From a phage: a stretch of 45,695 bases of DNA. Below, one piece after another: positions 1,557 through 45,128 of the stretch. The translations under genes were made by a program, and so were the position numbers. Each line of letters begins with the position of its first letter. The first letter of the stretch is position 1. The stretch lies in the NCBI GenBank assembly GCA_032325415.1, contig GCA_032325415.1_4119.2; one strand, given 5' to 3'. The notes below the pieces were generated by a model that ran no database searches, was not told the origin of the DNA, and saw only the letters and a list, made by a program, of their open reading frames with translations.

Positions 1557-2170
1557 AATTTTTATTTTGTTTTTTCCAATAGTTCCCCTACCGCGTGGGG
1601 ATAGTTTCCCCGCAGTATCTGGTGTTAGATTTTTCTGAATCTGGAATCATTATCTTATAAACTGGGGGCAATGTCAACGGCCTGGACGGATATTTTTAAA
1701 AATTTTTTCAGTACTGAATTTTGGGCGTAACTATGCACCCGGTGGGCTTGAGTCTTTCTCGACTTGATGGAACTATTATACAGTACTGAAAAAATAAAGC
1801 AATACCCTGGAAGCAAAAAAGTTTTAATTAATTTGCTTGCTATCCTGGGCCGGACTATGGTACTATGTTTCAGTACTGAGAAAGTGCGTTTACCTGCTAG
1901 GGTGCGGGAGTGTATCCTTTTTTTATATCTTGAATTTTGGGCGTAATTCCGCACCCTCTGGGGTTTCCGCTTTCTCGCGTCTATGTAGTAATTATACGCT
2001 TTTTCAGGATCAAGTCAATACCTAAAAACAAAATAATTGAAAATAATTTAACGCGTTTAAACGGCCTGTAAAGCCCTGGAATGATTGGAATGGTGCAAAT
2101 GTATAGCTTATGTGTATTAATGCGTTAGAATGCGTCTGAGGCCGTTTTACGGGGTATAGGGATGATTTAG

Positions 2171-2837: not shown

Positions 2838-3077
2838 ATGGCTAAATCAAAAATGTTCTTAGGTCACAAAAACAAAACTCATTGGAATGTAAGCCTTTGG
2901 ATTAATAACGATGAGGGATTGTATCGGTTGGCCCAGGACTTTATTAACGATAGCACTAATCGCAATGATGCGGCCCGTCATATGATGTTATTTTTAGAAC
3001 AGACTGGACAAGATAAAACACCGGACGGATTCAAATATAGCACTACTGCGATCCGTGCGGCGATGGTTGGAATGTAA
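2838..3077 (+). CDS. hypothetical protein (79 aa), paralog of 4875..5114
   Basis: SD AAGAGGA then ATG 2838; shares GHKNKTHWNVSLW...TPDGFKYSTTAIRAAMVGM with 4875..5114. Confidence 0.7.
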   Translation: MAKSKMFLGHKNKTHWNVSLWINNDEGLYRLAQDFINDSTNRNDAARHMMLFLEQTGQDKTPDGFKYSTTAIRAAMVGM

Positions 3078-3747: not shown

Positions 3748-3777
3748 GAAGTTTACAAATCTTTACAATTGCCGGTA

Positions 3778-3806
3778 TTGACTTATTTTGTCAGTACTGG
3801 CATAAT
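3778..3806 (+). promoter_or_regulatory. sigma70-like promoter with no ORF downstream
   Basis: -35 TTGACT 3778-3783, 17-bp spacer, -10 CATAAT 3801-3806. Confidence 0.5.
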
Positions 3807-3960
3807 GTATTCATTGGCAGATAAGCCGTAGCCCATAGGGTGCGGGAGTGTATCTATAGCAAAATTAGTTTAGTATAGTTACAATTGTGCACCCGGTGGG
3901 TTAGCTGTTGTCATGGGGTATATTATGCCAGTACTTGATAATGCTGTCAATACTTTTTTA
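3807..3960 (+). other. candidate structured non-coding transcript carrying GCCCATAGGGTGC and its inverted partner GCACCCGGTGGG
   Basis: No ORF; the two motif copies are about 50 nt apart in opposite orientation and could pair; ends in T-run near 3950. Confidence 0.3.
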
Positions 3961-3989
3961 CTATTCAGTACTGAAAACTATTTTTAAAA

Positions 3990-4172
3990 AGTACTTGCAA
4001 ACTATGTTTAAAGGCGTATAATGTTTTACATCAGGACGGGGAACGAAATAAGTAACTCCCCGTTAAGTAGCCCAGGAGTAAGGCACACGAAAAACTCCCC
4101 TGATAAAATAGTTTGACAAATGTTTTTAAAAGCGTATAATACTTACATCAACTACTGAATGAGGGTTACAAA
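3990..4172 (+). repeat. dual-promoter leader module, copy 1 (near-identical to 14936-15117)
   Basis: Promoter A (-35 TTGCAA 3995-4000, -10 TATAAT 4017-4022), hairpin ACGGGGA...TCCCCGT, conserved AAGTAGCCCAGGAGTAAGGCACACGAAAAACTCCCCTGATAAAATAG, promoter B (-35 TTGACA 4113-4118, -10 TATAAT 4135-4140). Confidence 0.7.
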
Positions 4173-4874: not shown

Positions 4875-5114
4875 ATGGCTAGTACTAAAACTTACAACGG
4901 TCACAAAAACAAAACTCATTGGAATGTAAGCCTTTGGGTTAATAACGGTGAGTCATTGTATCGGCTTGCTCAAAGTTGCATCGCACAAAGTAGAACTAAA
5001 GATATTGCTGCGGAATGTATGTACCGCAGATTAAAAGCCAACGGTACTACTACAACGCCGGACGGCTTTAAGTATAGCACTACTGCGATCCGTGCTGCAA
5101 TGGTTGGAATGTAA
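4875..5114 (+). CDS. hypothetical protein (79 aa), paralog of 2838..3077
   Basis: SD ACGAGGA then ATG 4875; paralogy with 2838..3077. Confidence 0.7.
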   Translation: MASTKTYNGHKNKTHWNVSLWVNNGESLYRLAQSCIAQSRTKDIAAECMYRRLKANGTTTTPDGFKYSTTAIRAAMVGM

Positions 5115-6228: not shown

Positions 6229-6258
6229 CGGGGAGATAATAACTCCCCGTTACTTTTT
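6229..6258 (+). terminator. rho-independent terminator
   Basis: CGGGGAG-ATAATAA-CTCCCCG followed by TTACTTTTT. Confidence 0.7.
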
Positions 6259-6391
6259 CAGTACTGAATCATTTAATAGACGGATCTCGGCACCCGGTGG
6301 GTTAGTGACTGTTTCGTCTTGATGTAGTAATTATGCCAGTACTGGATGCACTTGTCAACAATTATTTTTCAAATACTTTTTATTAAAATAC

Positions 6392-8809: not shown

Positions 8810-8845
8810 AGTACTATTGACATAGTTTGATAGTACTGGCATAAT
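8810..8845 (+). promoter_or_regulatory. promoter with operator-like inverted repeat AGTACTAT-N12-ATAGTACT
   Basis: AGTACTAT 8810-8817, -35 TTGACA 8817-8822, ATAGTACT 8830-8837, -10 CATAAT 8840-8845. Confidence 0.6.
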
Positions 8846-10787: not shown

Positions 10788-10882
10788 AAAAAAGTGGTTG
10801 ACTTCGGTCAGCCATTTTGCTATTATATATTCATTGAGAGATAGCTCACTAGCCCACAGGGTGCAGGAGTGTATCTATTATA
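10788..10882 (+). repeat. R module copy 1: terminator-like hairpin with embedded promoter plus conserved core AGCCCACAGGGTGCAGGAGTGTATCT
   Basis: Hairpin GTGGTTGAC-TTCG-GTCAGCCAT (wobble-compensated), -35 TTGACT 10798-10803, -10 TATTAT 10821-10826; homologous to 14813, 17527, 19497. Confidence 0.65.
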
Positions 10883-11661: not shown

Positions 11662-11697
11662 AGTACTATTGACATAGTTTGATAGTACTGACATAAT
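11662..11697 (+). promoter_or_regulatory. promoter with operator-like inverted repeat AGTACTAT-N12-ATAGTACT
   Basis: AGTACTAT 11662-11669, -35 TTGACA 11669-11674, ATAGTACT 11682-11689, -10 CATAAT 11692-11697. Confidence 0.6.
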
Positions 11698-12461: not shown

Positions 12462-12490
12462 TTGACAATATCATCAAGTACTGGCATAAT
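12462..12490 (+). promoter_or_regulatory. sigma70-like promoter
   Basis: -35 TTGACA 12462-12467, 17-bp spacer with AGTACTG, -10 CATAAT 12485-12490. Confidence 0.55.
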
Positions 12491-12541
12491 ACTTACATCA
12501 AGACGAGAACGTCACTAACCCATAGGGTGCACAAATGTAAC

Positions 12542-12625
12542 TGTATAATATTGATCAAAAAATGATCTGATCAATACTTGATCAATTTGCGTAAAGTAGT
12601 ATAATTCTGATCAATTCTTGATCAA
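12542..12625. promoter_or_regulatory. cluster of six GATC sites (five within TGATCAA palindromes) flanked by extended -10-like elements
   Basis: GATC at 12553, 12564, 12569, 12580, 12609, 12620; TGTATAAT 12542-12549 and TAGTATAAT 12597-12605. Confidence 0.55.
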
Positions 12626-14812: not shown

Positions 14813-14900
14813 GAAAAAGGGATTGACTCCGGTCAGTCCCTTTGCTATTATATACGCATAGAAACAAATCAGCCCACAGGGTGCATAAATGTATCTATTG
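14813..14900 (+). repeat. R module copy 2 (terminator-like hairpin, embedded promoter, conserved core)
   Basis: AAAAAGGGATTGACTCCGGTCAGTCCCTTT hairpin; -35 TTGACT 14823-14828, -10 TATTAT 14846-14851; core AGCCCACAGGGTGCATAAATGTATCT. Confidence 0.65.
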
Positions 14901-17526: not shown

Positions 17527-17612
17527 AAAAGATTAAAAAAGGGATTGACTCCGGTCAGTCCCTTTGCTATTATATATTCATTGAGAGATAACTCACTGAC
17601 CCATAGGGTGCG
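17527..17612 (+). repeat. R module copy 3 (terminator-like hairpin, embedded promoter, conserved core)
   Basis: AAAAAAGGGATTGACTCCGGTCAGTCCCTTT; -35 TTGACT 17545-17550, -10 TATTAT 17568-17573; core GACCCATAGGGTGCGGAAGTGTATCT. Confidence 0.65.
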
Positions 17613-17666
17613 GAAGTGTATCTATTATATAAGTATTCAGTACTGAAAACTATTTTTAAAAAGTAC

Positions 17667-19496: not shown

Positions 19497-19585
19497 TAAA
19501 AAAGGGATTGACTCCGGTCAGTCCCTTTGCTATTATATACGCATAGACAAAAACTAGCCCACAGGGTGCATAGGTGTATCTAAAA
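19497..19585 (+). repeat. R module copy 4 (terminator-like hairpin, embedded promoter, conserved core)
   Basis: AAAAAAGGGATTGACTCCGGTCAGTCCCTTT; -35 TTGACT 19508-19513, -10 TATTAT 19531-19536; core AGCCCACAGGGTGCATAGGTGTATCT. Confidence 0.65.
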
Positions 19586-36299: not shown

Positions 36300-36677
36300 A
36301 TGGAAATAAAATATAATGAATTTTGTGCAAGGACATGGATGTACACTGGTGAGTTAGTTACGCACTCTAACTTATACAAGGGTGATTTAAACTACGCTAG
36401 GGACAAGATTTTAAAGTACTGGAATGCTGACTTTTATTTGATGGATTTTAGTACTGGGTTTAGGGGTAAAGCAACCGAGATGTTGGACTATACAGTACTT
36501 GATGATGCTGCACTGTTTCAGGAGGCATTAGTATTTGATAAGAAGTACATCTGTACATTAGAAGAGATGATTGAAATCCAGCGTAGAATTAAATGTATTC
36601 ACAGAGAATGTATAGACATCTGGTGCAGTACTGGTGAAGATGATTTTTGTAATCATTTCAATCTAGGGGAAGAGTGA
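36300..36677 (+). CDS. family-B paralog, B1 subgroup (125 aa; track start 36192)
   Basis: ATG 36300; LDDAALFQEALVFDKKYICTLEEMIEIQ; upstream part of the track ORF crosses the inverted-repeat region. Confidence 0.55.
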   Translation: MEIKYNEFCARTWMYTGELVTHSNLYKGDLNYARDKILKYWNADFYLMDFSTGFRGKATEMLDYTVLDDAALFQEALVFDKKYICTLEEMIEIQRRIKCIHRECIDIWCSTGEDDFCNHFNLGEE

Positions 36678-36838
36678 TGGAATTTGATTTTTTAATATCA
36701 GTACATTCTTTTAAGCACAGTTATCAGTACTTTTGTAATTTAAACAAAGGTGATTTGATTATGGATACAGATACAGAGGCTGTATACAGTTCTAATATTC
36801 TGTACAAATTCAGTACTAATCTGAAGGAGATTTTATGA
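36677..36838 (+). pseudogene. truncated duplicate of the N-terminus of the 37206 gene (53-aa ORF)
   Basis: MEFDFLISVHSFKHSYQYFCNLNKGDL is near-identical to the first 27 aa of 37206..37562, then diverges and stops; lacks the family-B motif. Confidence 0.45.
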
Positions 36839-37206
36839 AAAAAGAAATTAGAATTCAATTCGGTATGAGGAAAAAAGAGGTCATCTGTACACTGAATCAT
36901 GCGGTCGTGGAAAGCCTTGGTGGTGCATTACAAAAATTCTCCCATTTTGTTCTTGTACTATATGAAAATGGGTCTTTTAAAATCTTCACATATGATGATT
37001 CAAAAAATTACCGTAATGATTTTGTAAATCTGACAGTACTGTCAGAAGAGGAATTCTTTCAGGAAAGTACTGTCTGGAATTTACCAGGAGCACCAATTGA
37101 ATACGTCCGTGCTACACAGGCAGAAATGATCAAAGTAATGCAGAACTATCCAGAAGATTATATGACTAAGTTTCCTGAATCTATTTATGTAGAGGTTGAG
37201 TACTGA
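36835..37206 (+). CDS. family-B paralog (123 aa)
   Basis: SD GAAGGAGA then ATG 36835; LSEEEFFQESTVWNLPGAPIEYV. Confidence 0.6.
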   Translation: MKKEIRIQFGMRKKEVICTLNHAVVESLGGALQKFSHFVLVLYENGSFKIFTYDDSKNYRNDFVNLTVLSEEEFFQESTVWNLPGAPIEYVRATQAEMIKVMQNYPEDYMTKFPESIYVEVEY

Positions 37207-37562
37207 TGGAATTTGATTTTTTAATATCAGTACATACTTTCAAGCACAGTTATCAGTACTTTTGTAATTTAAACAAAGGTGATTTAATGCACAGTGCAAA
37301 TGAGTATATTCATTACACTCAGGGTAAATTTACATTCATTGATTACAGTTCATTACAGTATCCACACCAAGATATGCCGGACTATACATTAATGGATACC
37401 GCAGAACTATTCCAAGAATCATTAGTATTTGATAAGAAGTACTTGTGTACATTTGAAGAAGTTATTGCAATACAAAATGAAATGAAAGAGTATGCTGCTT
37501 TGCATAAACCCAATGCAAGTATTAATCAAGAATACAAATTCAATTTAGGAATTCAAGAATGA
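37206..37562 (+). CDS. family-B paralog, B1 subgroup (118 aa)
   Basis: Overlapping start; MDTAELFQESLVFDKKYLCTFEEVIAIQNEMK. Confidence 0.6.
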   Translation: MEFDFLISVHTFKHSYQYFCNLNKGDLMHSANEYIHYTQGKFTFIDYSSLQYPHQDMPDYTLMDTAELFQESLVFDKKYLCTFEEVIAIQNEMKEYAALHKPNASINQEYKFNLGIQE

Positions 37563-37918
37563 CATATGATTATTCTATGTACTATTATAAGTTACCTAAA
37601 GGATGGGACTTGTGCTGTAATCTTATTAAGGGCGACTCGGAACATGAGTTGAGTTTATATATGCATTACAAAGATTCTTGTTTTAAATTTATTCATGTAT
37701 CACATGACGACTATGACTATGAATCTGAGAGTCTTATAGATTATACAGTACTGGACGATGGTGAACTATTTCAGGCTGCATTAGTGTTTGATAAGAATAA
37801 GTACTCCTGTACATTTGAAGAAATGGTTTCTTTGCAAAATGAAATGAAGAGATTTGAAAAAGAAAACGTATTTAATCCATCCCCATCAAGAACGAATAAT
37901 TATTATTTCAATATATGA
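37559..37918 (+). CDS. family-B paralog, B1 subgroup (119 aa)
   Basis: ATGA overlap; LDDGELFQAALVFDKNKYSCTFEEMVSLQNEMK. Confidence 0.6.
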   Translation: MTYDYSMYYYKLPKGWDLCCNLIKGDSEHELSLYMHYKDSCFKFIHVSHDDYDYESESLIDYTVLDDGELFQAALVFDKNKYSCTFEEMVSLQNEMKRFEKENVFNPSPSRTNNYYFNI

Positions 37919-37927
37919 GATTATAAA

Positions 37928-38419
37928 ATGACATTACAGAGTGCATTGAAAGAAGCAAAGAAGATTCATGAGTACATGATTATGGCAAAAGAAGGTTCAG
38001 TTTACGGTGTTTTCAAAGACACAAGTACTCAATATTATGTACCGGATAACCTCCTTTATAATGACTGCTCAGATACAGAAACGTGTGTACTGGATACAGA
38101 AACGTGCATACTAGATACCGACCCTAATGATTATGAATGCTTCATTAATATGCATAATGAGTACATGGTCTATATTAATGATACAGATACCATCAACAGT
38201 ACTGACAGCGATTCCAATGACATTATAATTCCGAGTGAAGTACTGGAAGGTCCGTGGGATAGTGAAGAGTATTACTTCCAACAGAGTACTGTATATGATA
38301 ATGAAGTACTTGATGTTATTATAATTATGTGGTACTTTAAAAGTATTGGTTCTGGGAACTTCTATTTCGATTACAAATACGTAAAGAAAACTGTAGATAA
38401 CGGTATTAACAGGGGTTGA
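37928..38419 (+). CDS. family-B paralog, B2 subgroup (163 aa)
   Basis: N-terminus MTLQSALKEAKKIHEYMIM; C-terminus LEGPWDSEEYYFQQSTVYDNEVLDVIIIMWYFK; internal tandem repeat DTETCVLDTETCILDTD. Confidence 0.65.
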   Translation: MTLQSALKEAKKIHEYMIMAKEGSVYGVFKDTSTQYYVPDNLLYNDCSDTETCVLDTETCILDTDPNDYECFINMHNEYMVYINDTDTINSTDSDSNDIIIPSEVLEGPWDSEEYYFQQSTVYDNEVLDVIIIMWYFKSIGSGNFYFDYKYVKKTVDNGINRG

Positions 38420-38420
38420 A

Positions 38421-38891
38421 ATGAGTTTAGAAAGAGCATTAGAGATTGCGAAGTTAATTGATTTATGCAGCAAAGAAATTGTAGCAAATTGTCTTAATGG
38501 ATATCTATTCAAGGAAGGTAAATCATATTGTCGAATGAGATACGATGACAGTAGTGAGTACATTCACATGTATGAAGAAAACTTAGATTCTTCTGAAACA
38601 ACACTCAATGGGTGTGATGTTAATTTGGAAGATAATTACATGTACTTCTGTCGTGATGCTGATATTTTAATACAAGATTCTGACATTATATCTGGTGCAG
38701 CAGAGAAACATCTTCCGTATTCAGTACTGGATAATGACTGGGGAAGTGAAGAGTACTACTTCCAGCAGAATACTATCTACGAGGAAGATGTACTTGACAA
38801 GCTTGTCATTCTGTGGTACTTTAATAATACAGATTGTCCTAGCTTCTATTTGGACTTGGATCTACTACGAGTTATTAAAGAGGATATATGA
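38421..38891 (+). CDS. family-B paralog, B2 subgroup (156 aa)
   Basis: MSLERALEIAKLI ... LDNDWGSEEYYFQQNTIYEEDVLDKLVILWYF. Confidence 0.65.
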   Translation: MSLERALEIAKLIDLCSKEIVANCLNGYLFKEGKSYCRMRYDDSSEYIHMYEENLDSSETTLNGCDVNLEDNYMYFCRDADILIQDSDIISGAAEKHLPYSVLDNDWGSEEYYFQQNTIYEEDVLDKLVILWYFNNTDCPSFYLDLDLLRVIKEDI

Positions 38892-39331
38892 GTTTAGCAA
38901 GTGCACTTGAACTAGCACACAGAATACATCACTTCCACGATAACATAAAAAGTGGGTTCTATGGTGATAAAGTAAGTGCATTTGGTGATGAGTATTATCT
39001 ATCAGGTATAAAGACATACTCTGATGATATTTTACTTATGGGACAGGATAAAGACAATACTATACAGTACTCTTCATGTAGTCAATATACTAGTTTTTTT
39101 GTATATATTCCAGGTACTAAGATTACGTTTGACACATCAAATGCACCTGTTGACTTCGGGGTACTTGATGGCCCGTGGGGTACTGAAGAGTATTACTTCC
39201 AACAGAGTTTCATTTTTAACCAAGAAATGCTTGATTCCTTGGTTGTGTTGTGGTACTTTAAGGAATTGAATTTTGAACCATTCTTTCTTGACTGGGGAGC
39301 ATGTGAATATTTAAGTACAGGGGATTTGTAA
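38888..39331 (+). CDS. family-B paralog, B2 subgroup (147 aa)
   Basis: MSLASALELAHRIHH ... LDGPWGTEEYYFQQSFIFNQEMLDSLVVLWYFK. Confidence 0.65.
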   Translation: MSLASALELAHRIHHFHDNIKSGFYGDKVSAFGDEYYLSGIKTYSDDILLMGQDKDNTIQYSSCSQYTSFFVYIPGTKITFDTSNAPVDFGVLDGPWGTEEYYFQQSFIFNQEMLDSLVVLWYFKELNFEPFFLDWGACEYLSTGDL

Positions 39332-39819
39332 TGTCATTACAAAGTGCATTGAAAGAAGCAAAGAAGATTCATGAGTACATGATTATGGTACAGGAAGGTT
39401 CAGTACCAGGTGTATATAAAACATCTGATACTGAATTTTTTGTAAAAGACCGTGACGATTATGACGAGTCCGAGATATGTGCAGAAACATTAGTACTGCA
39501 CACTGATACTGGTGACAGTGATAACTGTGAATATCATATGTACAATCAGTACATTAGTTATTGCCGTAATGAAGATATTACCATCTACAACACAGATAGT
39601 GATGCTGATGACACTATCATTCCTTATTCAGTACTGGAAGGTCCGTGGGATAGTGAAGAGTATTACTTCCAGAATACTACGTTGTACAATGAAGAAGAAT
39701 TAGATGTTATTGTAATTATGTGGTATTTCAAAAGTATTGACTCCAGTAGTTTCTATTTTGATTATGAATATGTAGAGAATACTGTAGGAGAAGGTAATGT
39801 CATTACAAAGTGCTCTTGA
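39331..39819 (+). CDS. family-B paralog, B2 subgroup (162 aa)
   Basis: MSLQSALKEAKKIHEYMIM ... LEGPWDSEEYYFQNTTLYNEEELDVIVIMWYFK. Confidence 0.65.
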   Translation: MSLQSALKEAKKIHEYMIMVQEGSVPGVYKTSDTEFFVKDRDDYDESEICAETLVLHTDTGDSDNCEYHMYNQYISYCRNEDITIYNTDSDADDTIIPYSVLEGPWDSEEYYFQNTTLYNEEELDVIVIMWYFKSIDSSSFYFDYEYVENTVGEGNVITKCS

Positions 39820-40249
39820 AAAAGCAAAAGAACTACATGGATACTTTGACGATATAAAGGCAGGAAAGTTCAAAGAAGTGTACAAAGCCGAGAACGGCAA
39901 CTACTACAAGGATGAAATGTATAATAACTCCGTTGGTGTAAGGGTTATTCTTGGGTTGAATTCCAATAGTCCTATATCGTTTTCTGAATACAATAGAGAT
40001 GCAGAATTTATTAGTTATGTTGAAAATGGTAGCATTCGTTTTATTAATCGCAAAAAACCATTAATTTTGAATTATGAAGTACTGGAAGGTCCGTGGGATA
40101 GTGAAGAGTATTACTTCCAAAACAGTACTGTTTACGATGATGAAGTACTTGAAGCATTAGTTATTATGTGGTACTTAAAGAGTGTTAACTGTCCTCGATT
40201 TTATTTGGATTTCGAAGAACTTCGTAAAGATCCAGAAGGTATAGAATGA
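39797..40249 (+). CDS. family-B paralog, B2 subgroup (150 aa)
   Basis: MSLQSALEKAKELHGYF ... LEGPWDSEEYYFQNSTVYDDEVLEALVIMWYLK. Confidence 0.65.
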   Translation: MSLQSALEKAKELHGYFDDIKAGKFKEVYKAENGNYYKDEMYNNSVGVRVILGLNSNSPISFSEYNRDAEFISYVENGSIRFINRKKPLILNYEVLEGPWDSEEYYFQNSTVYDDEVLEALVIMWYLKSVNCPRFYLDFEELRKDPEGIE

Positions 40250-40560
40250 AAAACTTATTCAGTGTTCAGTACGTCCCTGGTGAAATTAGTTTATTGTATC
40301 TGTTTGATCATGATAATTCATTATTACTAGTAGTAAAGAAATGCCAAGCTAGTTCATTTGTTGAATACATTCACGATAGTGAATATATACCTGATTTTTT
40401 AGAGTGTGATTATTACGATGAACATGAATCATTTATTTTCCAGGAATCGCTCGTGTGGGATAAATCGATCAACTTCTTTACGTTAATTGAATTACAAAAG
40501 CAGGTGAAGTATCATTGGAATTACTTAATCACACAGGATTACATTGAGATAGAAATATAA
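40246..40560 (+). CDS. family-B paralog (104 aa)
   Basis: ATGA overlap; DEHESFIFQESLVWDKSINFFTLIELQ. Confidence 0.6.
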   Translation: MKNLFSVQYVPGEISLLYLFDHDNSLLLVVKKCQASSFVEYIHDSEYIPDFLECDYYDEHESFIFQESLVWDKSINFFTLIELQKQVKYHWNYLITQDYIEIEI

Positions 40561-40868
40561 TGACTAAAAATGAATTTGATTCACTTTGTACGGTTTATAA
40601 TTCATTGACAGAAATACCTGACTTTATTAATTACATTTCAGCTTTAAATCAAATTATGCATAGTTTTGAACAATCGTTTGAAGAGAAATATGCTGGTAGA
40701 AAAGTTCTATGTCATATGTCAATGTACTTAGGAGATGGTGAGCCTTACACTACAAGTACTACATGTGAAATAAAAAAATATAATATATTATTGGGGACAA
40801 TAGAATTCACAGTATCCAATGGTGGTAGTTATATGTACTTTAGAGATGGAGTGGTTGAATTATTATGA
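40560..40868 (+). CDS. hypothetical protein (102 aa), no family motif recognised
   Basis: Track ORF joined to neighbours by overlapping start/stop. Confidence 0.5.
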   Translation: MTKNEFDSLCTVYNSLTEIPDFINYISALNQIMHSFEQSFEEKYAGRKVLCHMSMYLGDGEPYTTSTTCEIKKYNILLGTIEFTVSNGGSYMYFRDGVVELL

Positions 40869-41314
40869 GTTACGAAAGTGCAATCAAGAAAGCAAATGAT
40901 ATTCTACGCGTCGTTAAATTCTTCAAAGAAAATCCTGAATACTTAGCTGATGAAAACCATGATCACGATGAGAGATTGAGACGAAAAATTGTCGCTTTAT
41001 TTGACACTAATGCGGATAATTATAGTCTAATTGAGTTAGCATACGATTATATTTCATTGAACCGAAACGGCAATATAGTTAATATAGAAAGACATGCAAC
41101 TGAAGAATCTTTTAAAATTTCAGATATTTTATCCCTGAGTACTGAAGAAGGGTACTTCCAGGGTAGTACTGTTTATGAACAAGGGACACTTGACAATCTA
41201 TGCACATTCAGTGTAATATATCAGAAATCTGTACTAGATGTATTTTATCTTGACACTGCTGAACTGGATACACTAACCAATTTTGTTACTACTGAAGAGG
41301 CTACATTCGAGTGA
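40865..41314 (+). CDS. family-B paralog, B2-like (149 aa)
   Basis: MSYESAIKKANDILRVV ... LSTEEGYFQGSTVYEQGTLDNL. Confidence 0.6.
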   Translation: MSYESAIKKANDILRVVKFFKENPEYLADENHDHDERLRRKIVALFDTNADNYSLIELAYDYISLNRNGNIVNIERHATEESFKISDILSLSTEEGYFQGSTVYEQGTLDNLCTFSVIYQKSVLDVFYLDTAELDTLTNFVTTEEATFE

Positions 41315-41847
41315 TGAAAGTTAACATCAATGACTTTGATGCATTACAAGATTTATCAAAAAAGATTCGCACCATTGTACCAGTACTCAAAAAATGCAGT
41401 ACTGGTTTAATCGATCCTAGTACTGTTGTTAATGAGAAGTACAATTTTCATTATGTATTACAGGGTACTGGGGCATTCCAGAAGTGTGAGGTGCGTGAGA
41501 CACACGTAATTGATACATCATTGTTTTCTATTGGTGCACCTGTGTCGAATAATACTATTTTCCTAGACAACGCTGGAAATATTCAACAATTAACATTTAA
41601 GAAAAGGAAAAAGAACAATAACATTGGTGTGTATGCGATGAAGTGGGGTCAACCTGATTTGAAGCGTGAAATTCACATCCCTAAGTACAATTACAATGCA
41701 TTTGACGAACAGTGTTTTCAACTATCGTGTACTGACCCTGACTATGCTATCATTCAGTTCTATATGGAATTGCAGATAGCATTTAACAGTAATTTGTATA
41801 TTAACTTATTGGCGATTAACATTGATGAAGTATTCAAAAACATTTAA
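41311..41847 (+). CDS. family-B-like paralog (178 aa), degenerate motif
   Basis: ATGA overlap; FDEQCFQLSCTDPDYAIIQFYMELQ. Confidence 0.55.
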   Translation: MMKVNINDFDALQDLSKKIRTIVPVLKKCSTGLIDPSTVVNEKYNFHYVLQGTGAFQKCEVRETHVIDTSLFSIGAPVSNNTIFLDNAGNIQQLTFKKRKKNNNIGVYAMKWGQPDLKREIHIPKYNYNAFDEQCFQLSCTDPDYAIIQFYMELQIAFNSNLYINLLAINIDEVFKNI

Positions 41848-42043
41848 TCGAATTGAATACATGAGAACTGTGAGTGCAGTGTGGGACATATGGTTCACTA
41901 CTAAACCAAAAATGGATTACCATGACTTTAAGCTCTTGTTCTTCGTTGGCTCTAACAAACAGGATGTTGCAATGAAGGGTTATATTCAGCACTTACAGGA
42001 ACTAATCCAGAAGAGAATATATGAAAATAATAGACCAAAATGA
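41822..42043 (+). CDS. family-A-like small paralog (73 aa)
   Basis: Track ORF; VGSNKQDVAMKGYIQHLQELI. Confidence 0.55.
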   Translation: MMKYSKTFNRIEYMRTVSAVWDIWFTTKPKMDYHDFKLLFFVGSNKQDVAMKGYIQHLQELIQKRIYENNRPK

Positions 42044-42212
42044 CATTGCTAAACTATTCAATATATATTCTACTAGAATGATGCAAACAGACTCATATAG
42101 TACTGAATTCAAAGAGTTGAAAGTCCTGATGTACTTGGGAACCCAATATCAGGAACAAGTTATTTTGGAATATATTAATTCGCTGAAGAAGGATATCCGT
42201 TATGTACGATGA
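42021..42212 (+). CDS. family-A small paralog (63 aa)
   Basis: Track ORF; LGTQYQEQVILEYINSLKKDI. Confidence 0.6.
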   Translation: MKIIDQNDIAKLFNIYSTRMMQTDSYSTEFKELKVLMYLGTQYQEQVILEYINSLKKDIRYVR

Positions 42213-42762
42213 TTTAGATATTGCGTTTGAACGTATGGTAATTTTAATGCAATGTGCAGAAATGCATGAAACAATCCGTCGCACCAAAGGGATTGAATAT
42301 ACAAGTAAACTATTCTCATACGAAAGTCGTCGAGGGATGGATCATTTTTACTGCACTGATTGTTCAAAGTTTTCAGTACTGAAATATTATCATCCTACTG
42401 TTTCCAATAATAGTTTAATATCCACATATGACGGTGTTCTGTTTAGTGTAATGTATGACACATTACATCCATCAATTTCAATCTATAAAGATTGCGATAG
42501 TAGTTTATCGTATATAATTGAAGATTACTTATCTCCTAATACTGAAGAGAATATTTTTCAGAACAGTGTGTTGCATGATGAATTAAGCATAAAATGCATC
42601 TATATGTTCAATAAGTTAAAAGAGTACGCCGATAATAATTACTTAATTGATAAGTTAGCAGTATTGTCTGTTTCCGTTTTTAATACAAATGACATTGATA
42701 TGAAATACTATAATGAGATTTGTAAAGTACATCATATGTATAAGGAACTATTATGTCAATAA
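42202..42762 (+). CDS. family-B paralog (186 aa)
   Basis: Track ORF; LSPNTEENIFQNSVLHDELSIKCIYMF. Confidence 0.6.
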   Translation: MYDDLDIAFERMVILMQCAEMHETIRRTKGIEYTSKLFSYESRRGMDHFYCTDCSKFSVLKYYHPTVSNNSLISTYDGVLFSVMYDTLHPSISIYKDCDSSLSYIIEDYLSPNTEENIFQNSVLHDELSIKCIYMFNKLKEYADNNYLIDKLAVLSVSVFNTNDIDMKYYNEICKVHHMYKELLCQ

Positions 42763-43355
42763 ATGCAAATAAATGTTGTAGTGCAGATGTGCATTTGTTT
42801 TTTAAGAAATTAGCAAATGATATTATATATATGCAGGAAATGATTTATCACAAACGAGCGGATTTAGAAAAAGCATTAGTACAGTTCTCATTTATGCTTG
42901 ATGGTGATATATTTCTAGAGAGTGATGCATTGCGAATAGTATTAGACAAAAATGCTAAAAGATTTTTATTTCATATAGATAATAAATTATGTTCCTCCGT
43001 ATGTCGTACTTTTTATAATCGTGATTCGGACTTATATCAATTCCTTTATTCTAAAGGTGCAGTAGAAGCATCATATGGTGATGGTTATGCCCTAGGAAAG
43101 AGTATTCCATTTATGAAATCATTTAAAATAGAACACATCAGTACTGATGAAGATGCAATGTTCACAAATGATATAACTATGGGACGTGAAGATGCAATGC
43201 GATATATTACAAATTCTATGCATACATTCTTTCAACGAACAGAATTTGATAATGTATATATATCAAATGTAAATATTTTCAATGACCTGTGTCAGTACTT
43301 GAGAAGTGTTTGTGATTTTGATGAAAGCTATTGTAAGCTTTATACTGAGGTATAA
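42753..43355 (+). CDS. hypothetical protein (200 aa), family-B motif not clear
   Basis: Track ORF in array. Confidence 0.5.
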   Translation: MSINANKCCSADVHLFFKKLANDIIYMQEMIYHKRADLEKALVQFSFMLDGDIFLESDALRIVLDKNAKRFLFHIDNKLCSSVCRTFYNRDSDLYQFLYSKGAVEASYGDGYALGKSIPFMKSFKIEHISTDEDAMFTNDITMGREDAMRYITNSMHTFFQRTEFDNVYISNVNIFNDLCQYLRSVCDFDESYCKLYTEV

Positions 43356-43360
43356 AACAA

Positions 43361-43723
43361 ATGAACACATTAAGTATTACATACTATACAACTAAAAAAT
43401 TAGTTACTTGTTTAATATCATTGAAGACAAACCATGATGATATGTTTGATATGGCTGCATATGAATTAGAATTATCAGAAGATGGCTTCAAGAGCTATGA
43501 AGTATATAGCTATGTTCGTGAAGATGTAATTGACACTACACTAATGCAAGAGGATGAGTTATTCCAAGAAAGTTTAGTATGGGATAATAAGTACGATTGT
43601 AACTTTGATTTCTTATGTTTAATCCAGAAAGAAATGAAAAGAATCTTTGATAATTATCCAGTGAAGAGATTGAGTACTGGACCGGAGCAGTACAGGAGAA
43701 TTTTATTCCGTTATGAAGACTGA
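43361..43723 (+). CDS. family-B paralog, B1 subgroup (120 aa)
   Basis: LMQEDELFQESLVWDNKYDCNFDFLCLIQKEMK. Confidence 0.6.
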   Translation: MNTLSITYYTTKKLVTCLISLKTNHDDMFDMAAYELELSEDGFKSYEVYSYVREDVIDTTLMQEDELFQESLVWDNKYDCNFDFLCLIQKEMKRIFDNYPVKRLSTGPEQYRRILFRYED

Positions 43724-44048
43724 ATTAGTGAAAGTAATGTACGCTACTCATATTAAACTACTACTTGTGAAATTTGATTATAATAAAAAACATAATGATT
43801 TCTATACTTTAATTCGTGATGAAAATACATTCTCCTTGCGATGCAACAATATACCGTTGAAGATAAATGATTTTACTTCACTTGACGAGGGTGAATTATT
43901 TCAAGAATCATTAGTTTTTAATAGTAATATAAAAATTGATATAGAAGTTATTAAAAAATACCAGATTTTATTGAACAAAATTATGAATTGTTATCCATGT
44001 GAAATAGGTGGTCATATGCAGTTCAAATCAAAAATGTATGAATTATGA
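43713..44048 (+). CDS. family-B paralog, B1-like (111 aa)
   Basis: LDEGELFQESLVFNSNIKIDIEVIKK. Confidence 0.6.
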   Translation: MKTELVKVMYATHIKLLLVKFDYNKKHNDFYTLIRDENTFSLRCNNIPLKINDFTSLDEGELFQESLVFNSNIKIDIEVIKKYQILLNKIMNCYPCEIGGHMQFKSKMYEL

Positions 44049-44055
44049 GGTTTAT

Positions 44056-44592
44056 ATGTTAGATAAAAAAATGAACTCTGGAACCCAATATAATCATCTT
44101 AAGTTGGATACATTCGAATCAGCTATCAGTACAGCACAAGATATAATTGATATTATCAAGTTCATTAAAGAAGATAAGTTCAAATGTTTGAAAATACTAA
44201 ATCGTTCAATGTACCGTGATAAAAATATTCATGTATCAGTACGTAGACCGAAAGAACAAGAAAGTGGGAGAGATTTCTATAACAACAGTGAGCAGTTCGA
44301 ATGTGAATATGATCCAGAATTTAGAGGTGGTTTCATGTGTTACTGTATGAAGGATACCTCACACATTGAGATACGTTCATCGAAAGGTGGCATACGTACA
44401 TTAGAGTTTATTGATATAGTTTTAAATCAGGAATACTACTTTCAACTATCATTATTGTTTCCTGCATACGATTTAGGAGTTCTATTCATGTATAAGTACT
44501 TTCATGAGCACTGGAATGAAGACTTCTATCTGGACTTAGAAGATTACCACTTAGTTTGGAAAGAAATGGTAAAACTTCGCAACCCATCTTGA
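44056..44592 (+). CDS. family-B paralog, B2-like (178 aa; track start 44008)
   Basis: SD GAGG then ATG 44056; FESAISTAQDIIDIIKFI ... NQEYYFQLSLLFPAYDLGVLFMYKYF. Confidence 0.6.
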   Translation: MLDKKMNSGTQYNHLKLDTFESAISTAQDIIDIIKFIKEDKFKCLKILNRSMYRDKNIHVSVRRPKEQESGRDFYNNSEQFECEYDPEFRGGFMCYCMKDTSHIEIRSSKGGIRTLEFIDIVLNQEYYFQLSLLFPAYDLGVLFMYKYFHEHWNEDFYLDLEDYHLVWKEMVKLRNPS

Positions 44593-44618
44593 CACCCTCC
44601 GATTCTTTGTGATATAAT
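44589..44618 (+). promoter_or_regulatory. internal sigma70-like promoter within array
   Basis: -35 TTGACA 44589-44594 overlapping the upstream stop, 18-bp spacer, -10 TATAAT 44613-44618. Confidence 0.5.
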
Positions 44619-44651
44619 CTCTTTATATTAATTGTAAAGGGTTATATCACA

Positions 44652-45128
44652 ATGTCCAAAGACCTATCATTTAGCAATGCACAAAAAATAGCAAAAGACA
44701 TTATCAGGGTTTATAAATTCCTTACAAATGTTACTGAAGATTTTTCCGTGGGCAAACATACAGTCAAAAAAAGAAATGGATACCTTTCCTTTATGGATGG
44801 GTTACTCTATAGTTCAGATGAATCAACTTGTAGTATTAGAGTGCTTGATGAAGTACCAAGTGGTGATTTTATTTCATACCATTTCCCAAGTTCAGATAAT
44901 TTCAAATACTACAATCATCATCTTATAAATGAAGGATTTGATACGGCTGAAATTAACACTGAAGAAGAGTTCTTCCAGTACAGTACTGTGTATCCAGAGA
45001 GGATTGTTTTCAGTTCAGTGATTTACACTGCCCTTAAAAATGAACTAAATTCAGATAGTGATCATTTCTACTTGGACCTGAACAATCTCGATTGTATTAT
45101 TGAGTACCTGGAGAAAAATGGTTTATGA
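44652..45128 (+). CDS. family-B paralog, B2-like (158 aa)
   Basis: SD AAAGGG then ATG 44652; FSNAQKIAKDIIRVYKFL ... NTEEEFFQYSTVYPERIVFSSV ... FYLDLNNL. Confidence 0.65.
   Translation: MSKDLSFSNAQKIAKDIIRVYKFLTNVTEDFSVGKHTVKKRNGYLSFMDGLLYSSDESTCSIRVLDEVPSGDFISYHFPSSDNFKYYNHHLINEGFDTAEINTEEEFFQYSTVYPERIVFSSVIYTALKNELNSDSDHFYLDLNNLDCIIEYLEKNGL

Follow-up and report, generated by a model that had tools for sequence, protein, structure and literature searches.

We analysed positions 3778-3960 of a 45,695-nucleotide stretch of phage DNA (the window), for which a reading made from the sequence only had proposed a small RNA (sRNA). We found that 3778-3950 is two convergent (head-on) copies of one repeated ~85-bp module, each made up of a promoter and a structured RNA element. 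Rak2-like jumbo phages of at least five genera keep this module. We lean, without great confidence, towards regarding its copies as a new family of immediate-early structured RNAs, in which each unit joins a strong host-type promoter to an element of ~45-50 nt that works as RNA.

The window is 95-99% identical to Asteriusvirus jumbo phages of Escherichia (PBECO4, 121Q, vB_Ec-M-J and others). In vB_Ec-M-J, the homologous stretch lies within an annotated 21.5-kb direct terminal repeat, and the element there carries no coding sequence (CDS) annotation. The window represents the early region, the direct terminal repeat, of a jumbo phage of the genus Asteriusvirus (PBECO4/121Q group).

Two convergent units

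The promoter proposed at 3778-3806 was borne out as sigma70-like (Table 1); its spacer holds CAGTACTG, the source of the TG of the extended -10, and the predicted start is A3813. The segment downstream had been described as free of open reading frames (ORFs), and this holds for 3807-3907, inside which there is no ORF of at least 30 amino acids (aa); the sole overlapping ORF is a 37-aa frame with a TTG start at 3908-4021. The plus-strand RNA module opens with hairpin 1 (UGGC 3815-3818, loop AGAUAA, GCCG 3825-3828) and the linker UAG, continues with hairpin 2 (G3831, CCC 3832-3834, loop AUA, GGG 3838-3840, U3841; core 3832-3843), and runs through the invariant UGC (3841-3843) and a purine run, GGGAG (3844-3848), into a 3' box, UGUAUCUAU (3849-3857). 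Facing it is a minus-strand promoter, which forms an inverted repeat with the first (I1, arms 3775-3809 and 3919-3953). This promoter is followed by a short form of the module with the 5' segment CCAUGACAACAGCUAA, a CCC-ACC-GGG-UGC core at 3900-3889, ACAAU, and the 3' box UGUAACUAU at 3883-3875; hairpin 1 of the short form has only 2 bp.

The two segments that had been expected to pair, GCCCATAGGGTGC (3831-3843) and GCACCCGGTGGGT (3889-3901), are both present, 45 nt apart. RNA 3813-3920 folds as a long hairpin with a minimum free energy (MFE) of -42.7 kcal/mol (z -5.1, equalled by 0 of 200 shuffles), and a long hairpin forms in either transcript of the locus (z -5.1 and -4.4). The arms of this stem belong to two separate, opposite copies of the module, so the interval is two transcription units, not one. 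Moreover, vB_Ec-M-J carries a natural substitution that disrupts one base pair of the inner long hairpin yet falls within the allowed variation of the minus unit's 3' box, so selection seems to act on the module and not on the long stem. Covariation across copies, which had been put forward as a check, supports the small 5' hairpin and not the long stem. From these comparisons, the long stem seems to be a consequence of the inverted arrangement of two modules, with the module as the selected unit.

The T-run near 3950 that was taken to end the segment lies 53 nt past the end of the stem, upstream of the opposing -35, and so is not a terminator tail. We find it hardly credible that a single sRNA of ~150 nt runs from the 3778-3806 promoter, folds through the long stem and terminates there: the promoter and the long hairpin are both real, but the T-run is part of the opposing promoter, the right-hand half of the interval forms a unit of its own on the opposite strand, and the vB_Ec-M-J substitution breaks an inner-stem pair. 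What stands of the sequence-only reading is a promoter-driven, non-coding and structured segment. The second pairing that it had listed, at 1899-1966, is also present (AGGGTGCGGGA at 1899-1909, TCCGCACCCT at 1948-1957), and it is another convergent pair, of units 1893+ and 1951-.

In 121Q, a 61-aa ORF annotated as CDS 270 (L002 3906-4091) covers both convergent units, and several Asteriusvirus records carry equivalent 'hypothetical protein' calls. In the window this frame closes after 8 codons (ATG 3805, TAG 3829-3831), and the gp270 annotation is probably spurious. A type I toxin-antitoxin or cis-antisense pair was rejected on the closure of this frame and the lack of a conserved ORF.

Copies of the module in the window

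The 12-mer core, CCCNNNGGGTGC, has 10 exact matches in the window, and 12 matches when one mismatch is allowed, against 1.24 expected in shuffles. Exact cores lie on the minus strand at 1735, 1951, 3889 and 6290 and on the plus strand at 3832, 10853, 12519, 14873, 17600 and 19558. Every core sits 27-35 nt 3' of a strong sigma70-type promoter, with a fixed spacing of -10 hexamer, 5 nt and CA. A relaxed scan along the full 45.7 kb, on either strand, for a promoter followed by any 3-bp GC-rich stem, a 3-5 nt loop and TGC, gave only the 10 exact units and one diverged copy, 1893 (+), whose core reads CCUGCUAGGGUGC. All 11 units lie between 1.7 and 19.6 kb, a part of the direct terminal repeat. Four 12-pair hairpins, AAAGGGATTGACTCCGGTCAGTCCCTTT, at 10791-10818, 14816-14843, 17538-17565 and 19501-19528, hold in their 5' arm the -35 (TTGAC) of the next promoter.

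Table 1. Coordinates of the convergent units, their relatives and associated features, numbered in the window unless another record is named.
Feature	Position	Strand	Description
Sigma70-type promoter, plus unit	3778-3806	+	TTGACT, 17 nt, TGgCATAAT; 10/12 matches, extended -10
RNA module, plus unit	3813-3857	+	Basis: sequence, orthologues, hairpin-1 covariation, column conservation
Sigma70-type promoter, minus unit	3950-3922	-	TTGACA, 17 nt, TGgCATAAT; 11/12 matches, TG present
RNA module, minus unit (short form)	3915-3875	-	Also present in vB_Ec-M-J and 121Q
Long imperfect inverted repeat	3831-3901	.	Plus core/3' box facing complement of minus core/3' box
T-run	3954-3959	.	Minus-strand A-tract immediately upstream of the minus promoter's -35
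Paralogous unit	1717-1804	-	Promoter 1804-1775, core 1746-1735, hairpin 1 AGUC/GACU, loop GAGAAA
Diverged unit, convergent with the 1951 unit	1835-1917	+	Weak promoter TTGCTT, 17 nt, TATGGT; core CCUGCUAGGGUGC 1893-1905; GGGAGUGUAUC
Paralogous unit	1933-2018	-	Promoter 2018-1991, core CCC(C)AGAGGGUGC 1962-1951, hairpin 1 CGC/GCG, loop GAGAAA
Paralogous unit with terminator	6229-6358	-	Promoter 6358-6330, core 6301-6290, CAGUACUG box, terminator hairpin 6249-6229
Paralogous unit	10791-10878	+	Terminator hairpin carrying -35 10791-10818, promoter 10798-10826, core 10853-10864
Paralogous unit	12462-12544	+	Promoter 12462-12490, core 12519-12530
Paralogous unit (short form)	14816-14898	+	Hairpin and promoter 14816-14851, core 14873-14884
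Paralogous unit	17538-17625	+	Hairpin and promoter 17538-17573, core 17600-17611
Paralogous unit (short form)	19501-19583	+	Hairpin and promoter 19501-19536, core 19558-19569
Paralogue/orthologue units with terminator	Window 6249-6229; L007 9812-/2744-; L009 4688-; L026 10020-		
Leftward promoters toward iteron-like array	2018-1991, 1804-1775, 1677-1649	-	

Conservation among related phages

With a 121-nt query, the whole element was found at 96-100% identity in ~30 Asteriusvirus genomes. Only the first ~55 nt of the query, which correspond to the plus module, matched at 80-91% identity in phages of Klebsiella (RaK2, K64-1, Muenster), Cronobacter (GAP32), Pectobacterium (CBB) and Salmonella (Munch, 7t3). 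BLAST matches in these other genera stop at the module edge, and the module there follows a strong promoter and has unrelated flanks. The Munch-like and Eneladusvirus groups have only 23-29% average nucleotide identity (ANI) to Asteriusvirus (PMC13070987). E. coli genomes yielded no homologue of the module.

Altogether ~60 distinct units were gathered from the named phages and from Yersinia-phage-like and metagenomic relatives (IMG/VR jumbo contigs, pattern scans). A scan of IMG/VR with class-specific 15-mers returned mostly chance matches and 3 real units, one of them the informative CBB variant. Unit matches cluster in one or two loci per complete genome; in 121Q, 6 of 6 lie in L014 and L015. 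Convergent pairs recur as well, in 121Q, CBB (12531+/12599-) and the records L009 (1248+/1334-), L016 (114+/182-) and L026 (6060+/6139-), and the transcripts of each such pair are predicted to end in a long hairpin of their own core with the partner's complement. Between a unit of GAP32 and an annotated Rho-independent terminator lie ~400 nt without an annotated CDS and with a promoter-like site inside (L005 1460-1999); this stretch may be another candidate non-coding transcript.

Structure of the module

Compared across units, the module is a transcribed element of ~45-50 nt at the 5' end of each transcript, with its predicted start at the A within CAU (+1). Hairpin 1 has a stem of 3-5 bp and an A/G-rich loop of 4-9 nt (AGAUAA, GAGAAA, GCGAAA, AGAACAA), and the linker that follows has the consensus C-U-A-R. 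Hairpin 2 consists of R, CCC, a loop of 3-4 nt, GGG and U, after which come an invariant GC and five mostly purine bases. The 3' box has the consensus U-G-Y-R-U-C-Y-A-U, most commonly as UGUAUCUAU (tallied over 46 distinct units: U 44, U 37, C 41, A 38, U 36), and an AGUACU(G) box lies 8-20 nt beyond it in almost all units. A tiny ORF or leader peptide within the unit was rejected, as no frame is conserved.

Hairpin 1 varies in sequence and keeps its pairing. The best stem has a mean length of 3.54 bp over 46 distinct 5' segments, compared with 2.80 +/- 0.11 in 1000 shuffles (maximum 3.15), and a stem of at least 4 bp occurs in 25 of the 46, against 10.1 +/- 2.5 in shuffles. These stems comprise 23 different sequences, including GGC/GCC, GAG/CTC, GACG/CGTC, AGCA/TGCT, CCAC/GTGG, CAAA/TTTG and ACCG/CGGT. 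In 121Q, the whole hairpin-1 segment is swapped for another sequence that is also hairpin-capable (AUUG-AAACGAA-CAAU).

The CCC and GGG of hairpin 2 show no variation in 46 units. A scan in which the six stem positions were left free still found CCC/GGG in 7 of 7 promoter-linked units, so this invariance is not circular. The loops, of 3 or 4 nt, are free in sequence (ACA, AUA, ACC, AUU, UAUA, UAGA, UUUA, UCAA, AAAA). One CBB unit reads CCU-ACA-AGG, a compensatory change from C-G to U-A, and hairpin 2 of the 1893 unit is readable with a U-G wobble. That the 5'-CCC...GGG-3' polarity is fixed and the UGC does not vary suggests that the element is also read by sequence.

Such a conserved core might instead act as DNA, either as an operator or roadblock at +20 to +32, where a DNA-binding protein of phage or host would shut off the early promoters, or within a recombination cassette of the PeSL (promoter-early stem-loop) type under gene conversion. 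We judge this improbable. The core is nearly invariant and does not covary, the palindrome CAGTACTG that flanks units resembles a protein site, and the promoter/terminator part is PeSL-like (PMC4122927), all of which would suit a DNA element, but the spacing between CCC and GGG shifts by 1 bp and the loop varies freely in sequence. Together with the compensatory stem change, that shift means that the core fits a hairpin better than a duplex-DNA operator, and the strong covariation of the adjacent hairpin 1 is a single-strand (RNA) signature. Gene conversion, for its part, cannot account for invariance across genera at 23-29% ANI with wholly diverged flanks (PMC13070987).

Two further pairings were considered and rejected. 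The first, a third helix joining the 3' box to the 5' segment, appeared in the MFE folds of some units, but exchanging partners between units gave it no overall support (own partner -10.66 vs swapped partner -10.19 kcal/mol; mean z -0.22). The second, base pairing between the 3' box and the loop of hairpin 1 (AGAUA/UAUCU), occurs in one class only, without covariation.

Orientation and transcript type

About 40% of units face against genes and have no downstream ORF. Antisense units in RaK2, L009, L026 and the window (6301-) carry strong bidirectional hairpin and U-run terminators 45-60 nt past the core. Closed in this way, they are textbook promoter-to-terminator units, for which discrete RNAs of 95-110 nt are predicted; the predicted RNA of unit 6358-6229 is ~100 nt. 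For sense-oriented units, the next early gene is 90-330 nt downstream, mostly with a second, gene-proximal promoter between, and in one case (L026 12617+) a gene follows directly, 37 nt after the core. Several units start at a terminator-like hairpin that holds their own -35.

These arrangements bear on a second explanation, in which the module is a cis-acting leader, that is, a promoter-proximal signal in the RNA or the non-template strand that gives antitermination, Rho resistance or mRNA stabilisation, and the short RNAs are by-products. We regard it as possible, though unlikely. Every copy lies at a fixed distance from a strong promoter, sense copies precede early genes, and many of these start at the terminator hairpin of the previous transcript. 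Its layout also resembles that of the rrn leader, in which a variable, dispensable hairpin precedes a near-invariant 12-nt element. After the core, GG-N8-U|G suits the elemental pause consensus (U in 44 of 46 units), and a 5' hairpin at +3 to +7 is a classic device for protection from RNase E and RppH. The ~40% of copies that point against genes, have no ORF downstream and end at terminators leave such a leader nothing to regulate, however, and after most sense copies comes another promoter, closer to the gene.

Sequence signals of known leaders are likewise missing from the units. The boxA motif (CGCUCUUA / UGCUCUUUAACAA) was not found at 0 mismatches, and its 1-mismatch matches lie outside units. 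Lambda boxB was not found at up to 2 mismatches, and the hairpin-1 loops of units are 4-9 nt, as against the GNRA-like pentaloop of boxB. RfaH ops, GGCGGTAGnnTG, was not found at up to 1 mismatch. Rfam, which we take to include an ops-containing JUMPstart model, gives no match on units.

A role in replication or recombination appears very improbable. R-loop-forming RNAs from the units could prime DNA synthesis, as with T4 oriF/oriG or ColE1 RNA II, or the 179-bp palindrome at 3775-3953 could serve as a cruciform or origin. The location in the terminal repeat beside a Chi-rich region and an iteron-like array would fit, as would the G-rich RNA that follows the core in many units and the occurrence of both leftward and rightward units. 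Yet 11 copies per repeat are many for origins, the units at 3778-3950 are convergent and not divergent, most copies lie outside palindromic pairs, and half of the units have no G-rich stretch.

Comparison with known systems

The nearest relatives of the promoter part are the PeSL motifs of T4-like phages, which in the portions of the published accounts that we consulted are composite terminator and promoter motifs only (Arbiol 2010, PMC2839356; Comeau 2014, PMC4122927). As in those motifs, the window has repeated near-consensus sigma70 early promoters with a stem-loop of the A3G3-loop-C3T3 type, set among small variable early ORFs in a T4-related phage. Units 10791, 14816, 17538 and 19501, and many orthologues, have the hairpin fused to the promoter with the -35 inside it. 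Both promoters of the 3778-3950 locus, in contrast, have no fused stem-loop, and the units add to what those portions describe a conserved, transcribed and structured module of ~45 nt that occurs in both orientations and is kept across genera. The standard gene promoters of the window are PeSL-like and have no transcribed module.

The units also resemble genes for Hfq-type sRNAs of bacteria and phages, which have a promoter, ~50-250 nt and a Rho-independent terminator. All family members have their own promoter (here 3778-3806 on the plus strand and 3950-3922 on the minus strand), and antisense copies (window 6358-6229; RaK2, L026) consist of a strong promoter, ~100 nt without an ORF, and a hairpin with a U-run. 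They differ in their high copy number, in the many copies that have no terminator and run on toward genes, and, at 3778-3950, in predicted ends that are set by a convergent partner.

With processivity signals (HK022 put, lambda nut, rrn boxB-boxA-boxC, RfaH ops/JUMPstart) the module shares its position directly after early promoters. The put RNA of HK022 is ~70 nt long, has two stem-loops, lies just downstream of early promoters and acts in cis on RNA polymerase. The likeness to put is one of general layout alone, two small promoter-proximal hairpins, and the hairpins of the units are much smaller. The likeness to rrn is a variable hairpin followed by a near-invariant element of ~12 nt, with the pause-consensus-like GG-N8-UG next in the units. 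Unlike all of these signals, ~40% of module copies have no downstream genes.

Database searches pointed to no known RNA. Rfam 15 at the gathering threshold gave 0 matches in the whole window, and at E <= 10 over positions 1-21000 it gave 5 weak matches, none on a unit; ARAGORN found 0 tRNA or tmRNA genes in the window. PA5oct, a distantly related Pseudomonas jumbo phage, highly transcribes two non-coding RNAs, ncRNA001 and ncRNA002 (236 and 451 nt), inside its long terminal repeat (PMC7318152), and the likeness is that of non-coding regions within a terminal repeat. Homology to them was rejected: there is no sequence or motif similarity, and the PA5oct region examined contains no CCC-N3-4-GGG-YGC and no promoter-linked GGGTGC. 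Resemblances to CRISPR repeats (I-E, I-F), ToxI, hammerhead, preQ1 and CsrA sites were considered and dropped for want of a real match. A full-text literature search for the motif gave no relevant paper, and the Rak2-group literature searched held generic promoter lists only. So far as the literature and Rfam searches show, the transcribed module is undescribed, while its promoter/terminator part is PeSL-like and already known. In kind, it would be a phage-encoded small structured RNA or leader motif.

Possible function

If the units are immediate-early structured RNAs, as we favour, events at 3778-3950 might run as follows. E. coli RNA polymerase would fire both promoters immediately upon infection. 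Each transcript would bear the module at its 5' end and run into the complement of its partner, with which its own core would pair as a long hairpin. The outcome would be two overlapping RNAs of ~100 nt, with ends set by the long hairpin or by polymerase collision. Hairpin 1 would shield the 5' end, and the GC mini-hairpin would display the single-stranded boxes (CUAR, UGC, UGUAUCUAU) to a putative host or phage factor. The module could thus be an abundant immediate-early non-coding RNA or 5' tag, a view favoured by the independence of its orientation from genes, its many copies and the terminators on orphan copies.

Several points weigh against this interpretation. Folded singly, modules show no significant advantage over shuffles (z -0.1 to -2.1), and hairpin 2 has only 3-4 bp with essentially one compensatory event. 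Pair counting for hairpin 1 gave two-sided changes at 5 of 5 pairs (84 cells; 99% of cells pair vs 74% shuffled), but in a register-padded alignment fitted to the structure, so that the unbiased control is the stem-length shuffle test; N-padding was used because MAFFT cannot set the length-variable hairpin 1 in register. The long hairpin at the locus has no proper U-tract after it. Sense-oriented copies without a terminator, upstream of genes, suit a cis-acting leader and a free RNA equally. Start sites, ends and abundance of the RNAs are all predicted, and the proposed function is the binding of a putative factor.

A more specific version, which we consider a long shot, makes the module an immediate-early decoy RNA, present ~22 times per genome and independent of translation, that is aimed at a conserved host machine such as the 30S platform. 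In an exact-word scan, 16S rRNA positions 789-795 (the 790 loop) proved complementary to GUAUCUA of the 3' box, and 16S 794-799 to the flanking CAGGGU. A Shine-Dalgarno-like GGAG, GAGG or AGGA lies just upstream in 17 of 46 units. The 790 loop is exposed, and IF3 binding and subunit joining depend on it. The complementarity was noticed post hoc and is a speculative lead only; if the idea were true, a decoy RNA could, within the first minute of infection, stall or reprogramme the initiation of translation in the host.

Rak2-like jumbo phages of E. coli, Klebsiella, Salmonella, Cronobacter, Pectobacterium and Yersinia/Erwinia are widely isolated, many with phage therapy in view, and their ~20-kb terminal repeats, which have host-type early promoters, are annotated only as strings of hypothetical proteins. 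Within these repeats we find a conserved promoter-linked module in ~11 copies, and so ~22 per genome, that is far better conserved than the surrounding DNA, itself without a detectable cross-genus match. The module is a candidate RNA-based device for host takeover, anti-defence or transcription control. It also corrects annotation by exposing spurious ORFs such as 121Q gp270, and it offers a search pattern: promoter, CA, hairpin, CUAR, CCC-N3-4-GGGUGC.

Surroundings of the locus

The genes around the locus are small ORFs, each with its own sigma70 promoter close to consensus and, in the 5' untranslated region, a GC stem-loop (repeat families D1-D3). Ten neighbouring proteins compared with PHROGs were all assigned to PHROGs of unknown function, and to no other. 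The surroundings are a typical early, hyperplastic region of a T4-related phage. Two of the small early genes, at 2839-3077 and 4875-5114, are paralogues in which part of the sequence is 83-89% identical as DNA; they belong to repeat families D10/D16 and to phrog_871 (unknown function).

Two unit-type promoters, at 8817-8845 and 11669-11697 (TTGACA ... AGTACTGGCATAAT), run directly into genes. Their leader, AUCAAGAC..ACUAAG-SD, is like the 5' part of the units and lacks the core; weak, chance-level mir-1000 matches in Rfam fall at these spots.

The E. coli Chi sequence, GCTGGTGG, has 11 sites in the window between 1237 and 19623, all in the terminal-repeat part, against 0.39 expected. Nine of the 11 are on the plus strand (1249, 8185, 12176, 12686, 13636, 14904, 16705, 18111, 19616) and the others on the minus strand (1237, 8123). 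In related phages, Chi or its complement lies within the spacer of unit promoters (L007 9812-, L016 114+, L023, L026 10020-, L026 3196-). The clustering looks like a guard of linear genome ends against RecBCD.

Near the left edge of the terminal repeat is an iteron-like array with a period of 8/16/24 nt, GGATGGCT / AGACGTTT / GGACGGCT / AAACGTCT, at 1467-1552, at which three tandem strong leftward promoters aim (Table 1). It could be a candidate origin, packaging signal or injection signal. TGATCA, which contains GATC, crowds 5 of its 13 window sites into 73 bp (12552-12624), directly 3' of unit 12519+ and around another promoter.

The 8-bp palindrome CAGTACTG occurs at 51 window sites against 0.64 expected, an ~80-fold excess, with 40 in 561-20725 and 11 in 36626-44988. 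Some copies fall in the spacers of promoters and contribute the TG of the extended -10, others overlap -35 elements as AGTACTTGCAA, and a copy lies 8-20 nt 3' of nearly every unit in all genera. The palindrome may be a putative site for a dimeric regulator of early promoters.

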